64,000 bases of DNA from Thermoproteota archaeon (GCA_020832905.1 JAJHRG010000001.1:564940-628939); one strand, 5' to 3'; shown: positions 36,577 through 41,810, counted from the first letter of the stretch. Translations and numbers: made by a program. Notes: generated by a model from the letters alone, not told the origin.

Positions 36577-37241
36577 ATATAAGAAAATTAACAGTAATTG
36601 TAATATTTTCAGCTATTTATGCAGTAATTAGCTTACTTCCTGGATTTCAAGTAATTGGAATGCCAGGTGTTGATATAAAAATTACTAGAAGCTTAGATAT
36701 AATCTATGGAATAATATTAGGACCATTATTTGGCTCTTTAGCTTCTTTTATAGGAGCAATTATAGGAAGAATAATTACAGGTGGAGGAATTGGTTTATTA
36801 TTTACACCACTTGCAATAGTTTCCTCATTTATCTCTGGAATTACCTATGTAAAAGAAAAAGGATGGATAATATCTTCAATAATTTTCTCTATTATAATAA
36901 CATCTTGGTATATTGGGCTTGGAAAAGAAATTCCATTTTATGCTATTCCACATATTATTGGATTACTAATTTTAATTATTTTAGGATATAGAATAAGGAG
37001 TTTAATTAATTCAAAAAATAATAAAAATACATTATTAGGATTAATCTTAATAAGCTATTCATCAACAATGGCAGGACATATGGTTGGAAATATGATTTTC
37101 CTAGTATTAATTAATCCCCCTCCAATTTTCTTTATGACAATACTTCCATTAACAATTTTTGAAAGAATTACAATAACATTAATAAGTGCTTTAATAGGAT
37201 TACCATTAATAAGAATAATAAATAAACTCATTAAGTTATAA
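36573..37241 (+). CDS. polytopic membrane protein (ECF S-component-like)
   Basis: 222 aa with 6 predicted TM helices. ATGA overlap with the FAH gene. Family uncertain. Confidence 0.4.
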   Translation: MNIRKLTVIVIFSAIYAVISLLPGFQVIGMPGVDIKITRSLDIIYGIILGPLFGSLASFIGAIIGRIITGGGIGLLFTPLAIVSSFISGITYVKEKGWIISSIIFSIIITSWYIGLGKEIPFYAIPHIIGLLILIILGYRIRSLINSKNNKNTLLGLILISYSSTMAGHMVGNMIFLVLINPPPIFFMTILPLTIFERITITLISALIGLPLIRIINKLIKL

Positions 37242-37664
37242 TTTATGTTTTTGCTTTTTATTTTCATCAAAAATATGAATTACTTCATATCCTTTTTTAA
37301 CAAGAATATTAGCAATAAATCTTCTATGACATTTAAACCATAATTTTTCACTACACATTATTGCTAATATTTTTGATTTTGAAAGTTCTTCTATTTTATT
37401 AATACCTTCTTTAAATTTCTCACTTTTAATATAATTTTCATATCCTTCTTTTCTATAACCTCCAAGTTCTTCACCAAGCCATACATAATTTATATTTTCC
37501 TTCATTAATCTTTCAGGTAATTTATTTATTGAAAACCATGGAAATTTTTTACTAGTAGGAAATCTCCTAACATCTACTACTAATTCTATATCATAATATT
37601 TTAATATCTTAATGAATTCTTCTATATTTCTATTTCCATGTCCAATAGTATATATAATCATCAA
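37236..37664 (-). CDS. DUF488-family protein
   Basis: IYTIGHGNRNIEEFIKIL...VVDVRRFP...CSEKLWFKCHRRFIA pattern, characteristic of DUF488. Confidence 0.78.
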   Translation of the reverse strand: MMIIYTIGHGNRNIEEFIKILKYYDIELVVDVRRFPTSKKFPWFSINKLPERLMKENINYVWLGEELGGYRKEGYENYIKSEKFKEGINKIEELSKSKILAIMCSEKLWFKCHRRFIANILVKKGYEVIHIFDENKKQKHKL

Positions 37665-37761: not shown

Positions 37762-38349
37762 ATGAAAAAGACAATACTAATATCATTTATAATTGCAATA
37801 TTAATAACATTATTTTCTAGTGTATATGCTAAGGATTTATCAAAATCTGAAATAGTACACTTCTGGATAGCTGTACCAGCAGGTAATATAACAGAACCTA
37901 TTACTATTATAAAAGCAGGTTTACCTCCAATAAAAATGGCTCCATTAGTAATTGATTTAGATCAAAGAGGCATACTTAAGAAAATATTAAATCCAAATAC
38001 TGAAGCTATATCTACTCATTGGATTTATAATATTGGTAAAAAACCAATAAGAATTAAACTTGAATTAATTGAAGCTAATTATCCAATTAGATGGGAAGTA
38101 AAAGCAGCATGGCCTTATGATCCTGAAACACATACATTTACAAAACCTTTACCTCCAGGTATGGGAATACCTAAGCTAAGTATTGATTGGATTTTTGAAA
38201 TACCAAATTACTATATGGATGAAAAAGTAATTTATGATGGTGGATTATTAGTAATAGATGCAGATACTAATGAACTTCTTACTTTTATACCAATAAAACT
38301 CATTAGAGGAGGAATTTCTCAAGGAGGAGGAGCAAGTTGTTGTGGTTAA
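37762..38349 (+). CDS. secreted protein with C-terminal GGGASCCG tail
   Basis: Signal peptide MKKTILISFIIAILITLFSSVYA, a 170-aa beta-rich domain, and a terminal Gly-rich Cys-Cys-Gly. It overlaps the next gene. Confidence 0.6.
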   Translation: MKKTILISFIIAILITLFSSVYAKDLSKSEIVHFWIAVPAGNITEPITIIKAGLPPIKMAPLVIDLDQRGILKKILNPNTEAISTHWIYNIGKKPIRIKLELIEANYPIRWEVKAAWPYDPETHTFTKPLPPGMGIPKLSIDWIFEIPNYYMDEKVIYDGGLLVIDADTNELLTFIPIKLIRGGISQGGGASCCG

Positions 38350-39218
38350 AAAGTTTAATGAGAAATAAGTATAGATATATTTCTTGGATAATTGGCTTCA
38401 TATTATTTGTAGGACCATTTGCAATTATAATGCATATTTACTATTACTTAGCAGGAATATTAAGAGAACCAGATTTACATATGACATGTTTTAGAATGCC
38501 AATTGATTGGATATTTTCAGGAAGAATTTACTATATATTTAGCTATCCTGAAATGTTTTTATTTATATTTGTAGTACTAATAACTTCATTAATATTAGGA
38601 CCAGTATTTTGTGGTTGGTTATGTCCAGTTGGTGCTTTTAGTGAAGCTATTAGTAGAATAATTCCCTTACCAAATAAGTATAGAATTCAAATAAAAGATC
38701 CAAAGATAACAAGAGCAATAAGATATGGATTTCTTACTGGATTTATTATGATTTCTATATTGATTCTCTTAGGATTTTCAGAAAGATTTGCAGCAATATG
38801 TTGTTGGTATTGTGCATCATCAGTATTACAGCAAATAATTAATGGAATTATCAATCCAATAGAATTAGAATATTGGTTTAGTGGCTCTATAATTGTTTTA
38901 ATATTTTGGTTAATAATTGGTGGAATATTTACTGTAGGAGGAAGAGGATGGTGTTTATTCTTCTGTCCACTAGGTGCACTATCAGGTATATTTCATAAAA
39001 TTGGTTCTAAACTTGGATTTTATAGAACTATAAGAATAGAAGGTAAATGTATTAACTGTGGTAAATGCATATCAGTATGTCCAATGCAAGCAATTGATTC
39101 TAATTTCTCAATTGAAAGAACACTTTGTATAAATTGTAAGGAATGCATATCAAGATGTCCAAATAAACTTTATAAAATGATTTGGAGGAGTAAAAATGCT
39201 TCTTCAAAAATTAATTAA
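38337..39218 (+). CDS. NapH/MauN-like membrane polyferredoxin
   Basis: TM helices carrying CGWLCPVGA and CLFFCPLGA (CxxCP) motifs, plus two cytoplasmic ferredoxin motifs CINCGKCISVCP and CINCKECISRCP. The start may be the ATG at 38358. Confidence 0.75.
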   Translation: MLWLKSLMRNKYRYISWIIGFILFVGPFAIIMHIYYYLAGILREPDLHMTCFRMPIDWIFSGRIYYIFSYPEMFLFIFVVLITSLILGPVFCGWLCPVGAFSEAISRIIPLPNKYRIQIKDPKITRAIRYGFLTGFIMISILILLGFSERFAAICCWYCASSVLQQIINGIINPIELEYWFSGSIIVLIFWLIIGGIFTVGGRGWCLFFCPLGALSGIFHKIGSKLGFYRTIRIEGKCINCGKCISVCPMQAIDSNFSIERTLCINCKECISRCPNKLYKMIWRSKNASSKIN

Positions 39219-39411
39219 AAGATTTAAACTATTGTGGATTTATATTATAACAGCCTCATCATTACCTTTTTCTTATATTTTATCTCTTAATTGTAATTTT
39301 TTATGTTTTTCATGTCCACTTAGTGGATTATGTATTATTTTTTATCCAATAATTATTTTGGCTATTATTTTTGTAAAATTAATAAGAAAAATTAAAAATT
39401 TTAAAATATAG
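39196..39411 (+). CDS. small Cys-rich two-TM membrane protein
   Basis: 71 aa with CNFLCFSCPLSGLC between hydrophobic helices. It overlaps the upstream gene by 23 nt. Confidence 0.45.
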   Translation: MLLQKLIKRFKLLWIYIITASSLPFSYILSLNCNFLCFSCPLSGLCIIFYPIIILAIIFVKLIRKIKNFKI

Positions 39412-40791: not shown

Positions 40792-41380
40792 ATGAGTGAA
40801 AAATATAAAGCTCTTGGTGTAGATGTTCATAAAACTAGAATTTCACATTTTTAAAAAAAAATTATAAAAAGAAATTTTTCCTGGCTCTTTTTGTACAGTA
40901 ATTAAACATCCTCTAGATTCTTCAAAAGGTATTATACTACATGAGGATGGTGCTAGTAGTAAGCCTATTATTTCATATTTATATTATAAGGAAAATAATG
41001 ATCCAAAATATTTTCAAAGCTTAGTAAAAGATGTTATTGCAATGAATATTGATGATGTAATATGTATTGGAGCAAATCCTTTAGCACTATCTGATTATAT
41101 AGCATTAAATCCTTTAGTAATAGATAAAGAAGTTCTTTTAAGTAATATTGCTAAAGGTTTTTCAAAAGTACTACAAGAAGTTAATTTATGTTTTTGTGGA
41201 GAAGAAACTGCTGAATTACCAGATATAATTAGAACATTTGATATTTCTTGTACAGTTTATTCAGAAATTTCACTTGATTCTGTAATTACTGGCTATCAAA
41301 TCTCTCCTGGTGATATTATTATTGGATTAAGAAGTGGAGGTAAAGCATTAAATGAAGATTTGGTACTTCTATTGGACTAA
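40792..41380 (+). pseudogene. PurM/AIR-synthase-like gene remnant (frameshifted and C-terminally truncated)
   Basis: MSEKYKALGVDVHK... stops after 20 codons at an A-run. Homology continues in another frame (HEDGASSKP, IAMNIDDVICIGANPL, CGEETAELP, GDIIIGLRSGG). The C-terminal domain is absent. Confidence 0.65.
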
Positions 41381-41382
41381 TT

Positions 41383-41810
41383 TGGAAGAGAGAAGAAGCA
41401 CGCTCTATAGTAGAAAAAGGAGTAGATTGGTGGATATTAATTTTCTTTATGTTTCTATTTGCTAAAGCAGGAGCACTTAAGTATACTGGACTAATAAATG
41501 TGCTTGCTTCTGGAATAGCATCTATTGCATCATCTCAGCATCAAATTCAATCTTTTATGCTTTGATTAGTGGATTTGCATCTTTAATTCCTGTAGTCCAA
41601 AGTATTGGTAACTTAGGATTTTCCATGGCCCCTCTTTGGTGGGCACTTCTCTTTGGAGGGACTTATGGAGGTAACATTACTATGATAGGTAGTACAGCCA
41701 ATATTGTTGTATTAGGTATGTTAGAAAAAGAATGTAATTATTATATGAAATTCTTTAAGTGGCTTCCTATTGAGTTGCTTGGTGGAGTTTTACCAATGCT
41801 TGTAGCATAA
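41383..41810 (+). pseudogene. C-terminal fragment of an ArsB/NhaD-family permease (internal stop/frameshift)
   Basis: ...GVDWWILIFFMFLFAKAGALKYTG... ends at a stop, then continues as ...GGNITMIGSTANIVVLG.... This resembles the C-terminal third of the ORF at 10-1296. No N-terminal two thirds are present. Confidence 0.65.

Follow-up and report, generated by a model that had tools for sequence, protein, structure and literature searches.

The window analysed here, a 64,000-nucleotide stretch of the genome of a Thermoproteota archaeon (GCA_020832905.1 JAJHRG010000001.1:564940-628939), carries on its plus strand, from 37762 to 39411, three co-oriented open reading frames (ORFs), P1, P2 and P3, which encode an extracytoplasmic protein with an immunoglobulin (Ig)-like domain, a NapH-type membrane polyferredoxin and a small cysteine-bearing membrane hairpin, respectively. 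The window, from a methanogen-related archaeon, shares ~98% protein identity with a contig of ‘Candidatus Methanomethylicota archaeon WYZ-LMO11’. The coordinates of the three frames and their overlaps of 13 nt (P1/P2) and 23 nt (P2/P3), as given in an initial annotation of the locus, were recovered from the sequence. The 13-nt figure holds because the P2 start is taken as the TTG at 38337, a choice that is backed by a Shine-Dalgarno-like run, GGAGGAGGAG, and by how far homologues extend at the N-terminus. This run is formed by three glycine (GGA) codons of the P1 tail, so that the composition of the linker may be dually constrained. The ATG of P3 likewise stands just 3' of a GGAGGAG site. All features are collected in Table 1.

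Table 1. Coordinates of the P1-P2-P3 trio and of related features at other loci. Positions without a locus prefix are those of the window; TM, transmembrane segment.
Feature	Position	Strand	Basis
P1, 195 aa, extracytoplasmic Ig-like beta-sandwich with N-terminal hydrophobic helix and flexible C-terminal tail	37762..38349	+	
P1 N-terminal helix MKKTILISFIIAILITLFSSVYA, signal peptide or retained signal-anchor	37762..37830	+	Kyte-Doolittle TM segment 5-23
P1 Gly-rich tail GGISQGGGASCCG, vicinal Cys193-Cys194 at 38338-38343, Cys194 penultimate	38308..38346	+	Disordered in AlphaFold2 model
Shine-Dalgarno-like run GGAGGAGGAG for P2, 5 nt 5' of TTG	38323..38332	+	Read from sequence
P2, 293 aa, TTG start, NapH-type polyferredoxin with four membrane helices	38337..39218	+	
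P2 outer loop 1 motif TCFRMP, Cys51	38484..38501	+	C51 invariant in P2 alignments; loop 33-73 predicted outside
P2 first C-x3-C-P (CGWLCPVG), cytoplasmic end of TM2	38610..38633	+	
P2 outer loop 3 motif CCWYC	38799..38813	+	CxxC invariant in P1-associated P2 proteins
P2 second C-x3-C-P (CLFFCPLG), cytoplasmic end of TM4	38952..38975	+	
P2 cytoplasmic ferredoxin domain, two [4Fe-4S] motifs	39048..39161	+	Pfam Fer4 and motif positions
P2 ferredoxin motif of CxxCxxCxxxCP type, CINCGKCISVCP	39048-39083	+	
P2 ferredoxin motif of CxxCxxCxxxCP type, CINCKECISRCP	39126-39161	+	
GGAGGAG Shine-Dalgarno-like site for P3, within 3' end of P2	39184..39190	+	Read from sequence
P3, 71-aa two-helix membrane hairpin, P2 subunit	39196..39411	+	ORF; downstream conservation; natural fusions
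P3 outward-facing Cys motif CNFLCFSCPLSGLC (C33, C37, C40, C46), between two hydrophobic segments	39292..39333	+	
C37-F-S-C40 of P3, predicted redox-active CxxC	39304-39315	+	Homology to UGA-type P3
UGA-type P3 loci	L072:807-881, L089:3158-3232, L092:2557-2631, L095:1947-2021, L102:1090-1164, L149:2897-2971		
UGA-type P3 loci, minus strand	L100:75-149(-), L114:3107-3181(-), L134:835-909(-)	-	
P2-P3 fusions, 345-368 aa	P0199, P0195, P0200-P0205		
P2-P3 fusions, 400-428 aa	P0235, P0238, P0252, P0256, P0257, P0262, P0263, P0267, P0269, P0273		
P2-P3 fusions, listed loci	L028, L162:7001-8284		
DUF4418 genes	L039:1541-1981, L089:1063-1494, L149:566-994, L114:4864-5319, L077:334-753, L081:339-755, L048:4798-5268		

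P2 belongs to a known superfamily, while the P1 and P3 families are absent from Pfam and NCBIfam. Pfam places Fer4_5 twice in P2 (3.7e-16), together with 4Fe-4S ferredoxin (Fer4) families. The best curated family is NapH/MauN (TIGR02163), which P2 matches with 62 bits, below the cut-off of 213.05; NapH (NF007013) gave 57 bits (cut-off 234), CcoG (TIGR02745) 26.3 bits over the ferredoxin part only (cut-off 316.7) and NosR (NF046105) 23.9 bits (cut-off 1000). A bacterial P2 orthologue scores 73-74 bits in the same NapH/MauN test. P2 has four hydrophobic, transmembrane segments. The positive-inside rule assigns both termini to the inside, together with the ferredoxin domain (the C-terminal segment holds 15 K/R) and the loop 93-126, and puts loops 33-73 and 146-182 outside, the latter having 1 K/R against 3 D/E. 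The initial annotation had described a NapH-type protein with two 4Fe-4S motifs, which stands, and membrane motifs of the form CxxCP, which are actually C-x3-C-P. Their placing at the cytoplasmic ends of transmembrane helices agrees with the description of NapH as a protein with four transmembrane domains and its FeS clusters on the cytoplasmic side (PMC5449189). The proposal that P2 carries electrons across the membrane is supported by its NapH-type membrane and ferredoxin motifs, and NapH-like proteins are regarded as modular transmembrane electron-transfer devices (PMC8238504, Meheust et al. 2021). Export of the ferredoxin domain by the twin-arginine translocation (Tat) route, as in NapH-NapG fusions (PMC5449189), was considered and rejected, because P2 has no twin-arginine motif and the domain is predicted to be cytoplasmic. 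An AlphaFold2 model of a P2-P3 fusion homologue reached a predicted local distance difference test score (pLDDT) of about 90 across the P2 part; with the P2-P3 model, Foldseek matched the ferredoxin domain alone and found no solved structure for the P2 membrane domain.

The four cysteines of P3 are spaced C33-x3-C37-x2-C40-x5-C46 and lie between two hydrophobic segments, as first annotated. Both termini are basic and are predicted by the positive-inside rule to be inside, and searches of Pfam and NCBIfam matched no family. P2 homologues of 345-428 residues, of Methanomassiliicoccus type and on a Bathyarchaeia-type contig, are natural P2-P3 fusions. These fusions show that P3 is translated and is a real subunit acting with P2. 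They also show the direction of the first P3 helix, from inside to outside, and so put the cysteine motif on the outer face; the earlier assignment of the P1 and P3 cysteines to this face thus draws support from both the positive-inside rule and the fusions. In the closest relatives of the window (L006:6435-6647 and L156, ~98% identity) the fourth P3 cysteine, C46 in the window, is a tyrosine, so that only the first three are strictly kept in that lineage.

A genome scan returned 27 loci, including those of Methanosuratincola verstraetei LCB70 and M. petrocarbonis LWZ-6, both titled complete chromosomes. Wherever a Methanomethylicia locus offers enough sequence, the three genes are colinear in the order P1-P2-P3 and mostly overlap; all three are also present in the cultured Methanolinea mesophila, where P3 is not called as a gene. 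A metagenome scan, for which the P2 motif GP-x-FC-x3-C-x2-G-x3-E-x-[LI]-S-R was turned into a degenerate DNA pattern, retrieved 120 loci. With local hidden Markov models (HMMs), 134 loci overall, from genomes and metagenomes, had a high-scoring P2, and these were grouped into 82 clusters at 85% identity. P1 lies directly 5' of P2 in 56/64 testable clusters (archaeal-type 25/26, bacterial-type 31/38), and a P3-type cysteine hairpin lies directly 3' of P2, or is fused to it, in 70/71 (archaeal-type 24/24, bacterial-type 46/47). The same gene order, with mostly overlapping genes, recurs across dozens of independent loci whose flanks differ, which is more than chance would produce, and the view of the trio as one unit, for which a neighbourhood survey had been set beforehand as the test, is borne out. 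Methanogens are among the hosts, as are Dehalococcoidia.

In nine high-GC bacterial loci an in-frame TGA stands at the second P3 cysteine (C37 of CFSC in the window). The motif of these proteins is C-x5-U-x2-C-x2-C, and their close cysteine homologues (L133, L043, L085, L081 and L070) have C-x5-C-x2-C-x2-C. Downstream of the TGA the protein similarity runs on through the second membrane helix. A hairpin, AGCCUG-CGUGYC-CAGGCU, begins 14 nt past the TGA, with a stem of 6-8 bp and the loop CGUGYC; it is invariant in six otherwise divergent sequences, synonymous sites included. The hairpin region uses A-ending Gly/Ala codons and the rare Arg codon AGG, and the cysteine homologue L133 encodes the same amino acids by other codons, without the hairpin. 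Since P1 and P2 of these high-GC loci contain no internal TGA, a variant genetic code as the explanation of the in-frame UGA is unlikely and was rejected. On this sequence pattern, the UGA-carrying P3 orthologues are probably selenoproteins, and it is probable that they represent a new selenoprotein family that gene callers have truncated or missed. NCBIfam holds no model for the UGA-type P3 family, and a 2026 review of prokaryotic selenoproteomes does not mention NapH, polyferredoxin, transmembrane or DUF4418. Selenocysteine (Sec) is typical of redox-active sites in selenoproteins. UGA at the second cysteine therefore suggests, by homology, that C37-F-S-C40 of the window protein is a redox-active CxxC and probably not only structural.

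P1 begins with MKKTILISFIIAILITLFSSVYA and ends in ...RGGISQGGGASCCG. Two lysines precede transmembrane segment 5-23; Y22 in the N-terminal helix is invariant and T16 nearly so, and G-x-G-x-Y persists in distant homologues. Such conservation would be unusual for a cleaved signal peptide. Structure prediction, which had been proposed as a check on the secreted domain, gave an Ig-like fold: the AlphaFold2 model (31 homologues, pLDDT 92) consists of an N-terminal helix, a beta-sandwich from residue 32 to 181 and a disordered end, residues 188-195. The top PDB match in Foldseek was 2r39, the Ig-like C-terminal domain of a FixG-related protein, a weak hit at E 1.5e-3, and in Pfam FixG_C is the commonest weak match in the P1 family (4/64 members, best E 4.9e-4). 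The window P1 itself matched no family in Pfam or NCBIfam, and the P1 profile, searched against PDB sequences, returned nothing but a spurious WD40 match. Close P1 homologues (n=58) are nearly all from Methanomethylicia. An exhaustive profile search yielded only 98 representatives at the 50% clustering level, and profiling the broad P1 alignment against a set of 5.8 billion proteins added almost no new members.

The conservation of the C-terminal CCG, a point on which the initial annotation had staked its reading, holds in part. In most close (Methanomethylicia) homologues the tail is CC-[GSDE] or [SG]-C-H, the common element being a penultimate cysteine; family-wide the ending is not conserved, since 177 non-redundant C-termini comprise 56 CC, 25 CH, 6 with other cysteines, 13 that are His-rich or His-ending and 77 without Cys or His. 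CC, CH or His-rich tails, those with other cysteines included, are thus found on 100/177 P1 proteins. The tail conservation is not a by-product of dual coding, because the overlapping P2 N-terminus is not conserved; overlap with the P2 start was rejected as its cause for this reason. Loci with a tail-less P1 retain P3 and a P2 with its outer cysteines. The machinery is therefore not there solely to mature or modify the di-cysteine tail, and the initial proposal of a system dedicated to that tail is not supported in that form; nothing points to the lipid or cofactor attachment that it had also envisaged. An accessory role, as a swinging arm or a ligand, suits the tail better. Three further ideas about it were rejected: a selenocysteine concealed past the apparent stop of tail-less P1 genes (there is no conserved extension), flavinylation of ‘GGAS’ by ApbE (the residue after G-A varies between S, D and N) and C-terminal prenylation or a lipid anchor, which found no support. 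No Pfam match to ApbE or to a flavin mononucleotide (FMN)-binding domain was obtained in P1-P3 or the ten flanking genes.

P2-P3 is the constant element, and the outside partner is exchangeable, being usually P1 and otherwise a flavodoxin-like or another Ig-like protein, which fits the concept of NapH-like proteins as modular extracytoplasmic electron-transfer devices (PMC8238504). At two low-GC loci (L101:5882-6511 and L111:124-747, the latter from a human gut metagenome) the gene 5' of P2-P3 encodes a Flavodoxin_4 protein instead of P1, and these partners carry a Tat/lipoprotein or a lipoprotein signal. At L162:6237-10244 and L105 the operon opens with a Big_7 Ig-like protein anchored at its C-terminus and continues with a P2-P3 fusion and a 651-residue CcmF-like protein with a WWD motif; the lineage of this variant operon is not known for c-type cytochromes. 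Big_7-like proteins also lie 5' of P2 in L057 and L074.

Among neighbours of the trio, DUF4418, a membrane protein of ~140 residues with four conserved cysteines, adjoins P1/P2 in 11 loci and is often accompanied by an ATP-binding cassette (ABC) transporter of MacB/FtsX type. L039, which has no P2, presents the order PadR, NifX-like gene, DUF4418, MacB ABC transporter and CC-tailed P1 homologue. A minority of bacterial loci have metal-related neighbours, namely YHS and TonB-dependent receptors, a CPC-type CopA with HMA domain, DUF4198, CobN, and CopZ together with a P1B-type ATPase and NosZ. The high-GC bacterial locus L036:1-11276 encodes nosZ, two response regulators, a sensor kinase, DUF2231 and P1, P2 and P3, and continues 3' of the trio with a Crp-family regulator, a CopZ-like HMA protein and a P1B-type ATPase (with a CPG instead of a CPC motif); its P1 tail reads ...HGGHHH. 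In L037 a His-rich DUF6448 protein sits between the HMA and ATPase genes. The flanks in Methanomethylicia vary and consist of housekeeping genes, the sole recurrent neighbour being a divergent PadR regulator (19 loci). It lies just upstream of P1, as in L003:4337-4882(-) and at the equivalent place in 18 other Methanomethylicia loci of Methanomethylicus/Methanosuratincola type; in the window this position is taken by a DUF488 gene (37236-37664, minus strand). Ten flanking genes of the window are unrelated to the trio, and include geranylgeranyl reductase (GGR), isochorismatase, flavin reductase, FAH, an ECF S-component, DUF488, inorganic pyrophosphatase and a PhoU-type regulator. Farther downstream, at 41042-41810, there are two short ORFs of 112 residues (41042-41380; by eye a PurM/AIR-synthase-like fragment) and 82 residues (41562-41810; by eye the C-terminal end of an ion permease), which may be pseudogene remnants.

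What could such a trio do? We tentatively favour, at somewhat less than an even chance, the hypothesis that the three proteins belong, as subunits, to a single complex of the cytoplasmic membrane by which reducing power is exported, and that a thiophilic metal held by the P1 tail is reduced or handed on, with copper as the first guess. Electrons, probably supplied by a donor at the level of ferredoxin, would enter P2 at its two cytoplasmic [4Fe-4S] motifs and cross by way of the two C-x3-C-P motifs at the membrane edge. They would arrive at a cysteine centre facing outward, to which P2 would contribute the cysteines of its outer loops (C51, CCxxC) and P3 its CxxC hairpin. Outside, the Ig-like domain of P1 would be held by its N-terminal helix, while the flexible Gly-rich tail with its penultimate cysteine (...SCCG) would swing into this centre. 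The most likely task would be the reduction or onward transfer of a thiophilic transition-metal ion bound by the tail, and the tail would act like the C-terminal Cys-Cys arm of MerA. A thiophilic metal is favoured, and copper, the best single guess, comes first, because CC, CH and His-rich tails alternate, because metal genes adjoin some loci, and because CcoG is built of the same parts.

CcoG is a cupric reductase of the same superfamily, with an Ig-like periplasmic domain of no known role (PMC7558416). CcoG/FixG and the trio share a Fer4_5 membrane part, two [4Fe-4S] clusters and a membrane-held Ig-like periplasmic domain (PMC7558416); P1 weakly resembles the Ig-like domain of CcoG, and some bacterial loci adjoin CopZ/CopA-type genes. 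In the trio, however, the Ig-like part is encoded separately and upstream, as P1, which brings an N-terminal helix of its own; an Ig-like domain is lacking in P2, and no cco genes lie nearby. We know of no P3-like subunit and no Cys-Cys tail in CcoG. Moreover, copper reduction by CcoG is thought to serve a cytoplasmic CopZ/CcoI route, whereas the candidate site of the trio faces outward.

For the tail, too, there are parallels. MerA ends in ...Cys-Cys-Ala-Gly, and DsrC bears a penultimate cysteine. The C-terminal arm of thioredoxin reductase (TrxR) is Gly-Cys-Sec-Gly (PMC10298544). Like these arms, the flexible P1 tail carries a vicinal or penultimate cysteine 1-2 residues from the end (SCCG, DCCS, GSCH). 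Unlike P1, which is extracytoplasmic, Ig-like and unrelated in sequence, they belong to cytoplasmic flavoenzymes or sulfur carriers, and many P1 family members are His-tailed or tail-less. Another parallel is SaoC, a small secreted ‘CC-COOH’ dark-matter protein of the SAO locus of strict anaerobes, which ends in Cys-Cys, sometimes Cys-Sec, and has been read as handling heavy metals (Haft and Gwadz, bioRxiv 10.1101/2022.07.06.499078). As with P1, its gene stands with those of membrane transport/redox proteins, which carry repeated CC/CU/Sec motifs. P1 differs in ending CC-x (CC-G in the window) and not CC-COOH, in its Ig-like fold, in its usual pairing with a NapH-like protein, and in a neighbourhood without an SAO ABC transporter or a MerB-like gene. 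No NCBIfam or Pfam match linked P1 with SaoC, the presence of a SaoC model in the NCBIfam set being unconfirmed. We regard SaoC as a conceptual parallel of P1, not as a detectable relative.

Several points weigh against the hypothesis of a metal-reducing complex. What the analysis shows is the gene order and its conservation, the P2-P3 fusion, the predicted topology, the equivalence of Sec and Cys in P3 and the variety of tails; that P1 joins a physical complex, which way electrons flow, what the tail does and what the substrate is are all things we infer. With 77/177 P1 proteins tail-less while P2 and P3 are kept, the tail is not essential to the core reaction. The metal-related neighbours are limited to the bacterial minority, and the Methanomethylicia flanks are of housekeeping type except for PadR. 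It is also unclear what requirement for copper strictly anaerobic methanogens would have. As for the selenocysteine, the hairpin that resembles a selenocysteine insertion sequence (SECIS) shows no covariation, its folding z-scores are not significant, and it has no match in Rfam. Finally, disulfide exchange would account for a CxxC/UxxC motif no less well than metal reduction does.

This last point leads to a serious rival, a disulfide relay, which we nevertheless consider unlikely. The trio would then be a ferredoxin-driven functional analogue of DsbD/CcdA, in which P2-P3 exports a dithiol reductant and P1 is the Ig-like hub; the vicinal Cys-Cys tail would cycle between disulfide and dithiol in the manner of the TrxR arm and reduce disulfides of envelope proteins or small molecules. 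The periplasmic DsbD-alpha domain is Ig-like, and so is the fold of P1; TrxR arm variants Ser-Cys-Cys-Ser and Gly-Cys-Cys-Gly exist. The x-C-C-x end on its flexible arm also matches the Gly-Cys-Sec-Gly arm of TrxR (PMC10298544), and the Cys/Sec exchange falls inside the P3 CxxC. In both systems reducing power would be exported to outward cysteine pairs. The L162/L105 variant links P2-P3 with CcmF-like maturation, the fusion being directly 5' of the CcmF-like gene, and cytochrome c maturation requires thiol reduction outside the membrane; DUF4418, next to the trio at its 11 loci, is another four-cysteine membrane protein. On the other side, Pfam detected no sequence relationship: no DsbD/CcdA family (PF02683) appeared in P1, P2 or P3 at E up to 1. 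The input of the trio is of iron-sulfur/ferredoxin type and not thioredoxin, the operon has no thioredoxin-fold partner, and the outer motif sits on a separate 71-residue hairpin. His-rich and C-H tails (38/177) as well as tail-less P1 proteins (77/177) are unfit for a dithiol arm, and there is no evident client protein in archaeal neighbourhoods.

The remaining alternatives are less likely. It is improbable, in our estimate, that the cysteines act as iron-sulfur (Fe-S) ligands only, with the four of P3, and three outer ones of P2 plus a Cys/His from the P1 tail, each binding a [4Fe-4S] cluster in a purely metallic wire to an external acceptor for extracellular electron transfer or respiration. 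The ligand counts fit (4 in P3; 3 in P2 and 1 in P1), an exported flavodoxin-like partner replaces P1 at some loci, and the NapG/NapH and NosR systems of the family conduct electrons to enzymes in the periplasm (PMC5449189, PMC8238504). Against a wire of this kind stand the probable selenocysteine in place of one P3 cysteine at nine loci, the tyrosine in place of the fourth in the 98%-identical relatives of the window, and the frequency of tail-less P1 proteins; nor is there a Tat motif (P2 has no RR motif) or a known route of cluster insertion on the outer face. We know of no case of Sec as a ligand of an Fe-S cluster.

The likeness to NapH raises a still less probable alternative, that P2 is an ordinary quinol dehydrogenase of NapH/NosH type, working between the quinone pool and a periplasmic respiratory reductase, with P1 and P3 as incidental accessories. 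The best HMM matches are indeed NapH/MauN and NapH, and one bacterial locus lies ~4 kb from nosZ. With NapH-like systems (NapGH, NosR, PceC; PMC8238504) P2 shares four helices, two C-x3-C-P motifs at the cytoplasmic membrane edge and, in its cytoplasmic C-terminal part, a pair of [4Fe-4S] motifs, as well as modular pairing with an extracytoplasmic partner. The trio differs from them, however, in the absence of NapG, an FMN-binding domain and ApbE, in the extra invariant outer-loop cysteines of P2 (C51, CxxC) and in the obligatory P3, a micro-subunit with CxxC/UxxC. The partner outside is usually Ig-like with a Cys/His tail, and the acceptor would be a thiol/selenol and not a flavinylated domain. 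The P2 scores are far under the cut-offs (62 against 213 and 57 against 234). No NapG/NapAB or mau-type setting exists: nap genes, napG and napA among them, and nos genes are absent from the window flanks and the archaeal loci, the window as a whole has no nos genes, and FMN_bind has no match in the trio, in contrast to NosR. Methanogens and Dehalococcoidia, which are among the hosts, do not to our knowledge have quinone-based respiration, and the linkage of P1 and P3 to P2 is far too tight for an incidental role. Least probable of all is a dedicated maturation machine in which P2 and P3 modify the P1 C-terminus (by lipid, cofactor or cross-link), for although the three genes are tightly coupled in translation and most Methanomethylicia P1 proteins keep the penultimate cysteine, P2-P3 persists with tail-less P1 (77/177) or with an unrelated Ig-like or flavodoxin-like partner, Pfam and NCBIfam reveal no transferase or lyase domain in the trio, and P1 tails have no in-frame Sec extension.

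The initial annotation could not match the locus to a described system, and we concur: Pfam, NCBIfam, the PDB and the searchable literature contain no description or counterpart of P1 or P3, of their obligatory association, or of a Sec-containing P3. Could P2-P3 then be the core of an unrecognised, widespread exporter of reductant, from ferredoxin to a surface CxxC/UxxC, that works without quinone, haem or thioredoxin, with P3 and P1 as new families? We see this as possible, with the chances rather against it. The trio occurs in all sampled Methanomethylicia and in Methanolinea, and variants exist in Methanomassiliicoccales-type archaea and many uncultured anaerobic bacteria. Electrons are needed at the cell surface for metal uptake and detoxification, disulfide reduction and cofactor handling; how anaerobes without quinones, cytochromes or DsbD supply them is poorly understood, and the trio is a compact, self-contained candidate. 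It is also tractable, consisting of three small genes with clear point mutants (P3 C37/C40, P2 C51/C155-159) and a P1 tail deletion. The NapH/NosR/CcoG superfamily gains a concrete proposed outward redox site, the P3 CxxC, with Sec in some bacteria. If the proposal is true, P3 would be a new selenoprotein family, and P1 an Ig-like surface family with a TrxR/MerA-style Cys-Cys tail outside the cell. P2-P3 would be a counterpart of DsbD/CcdA or of the eukaryotic surface metalloreductases, and possibly the main route for surface metal or disulfide reduction in methanogens that lack cytochromes or quinones.

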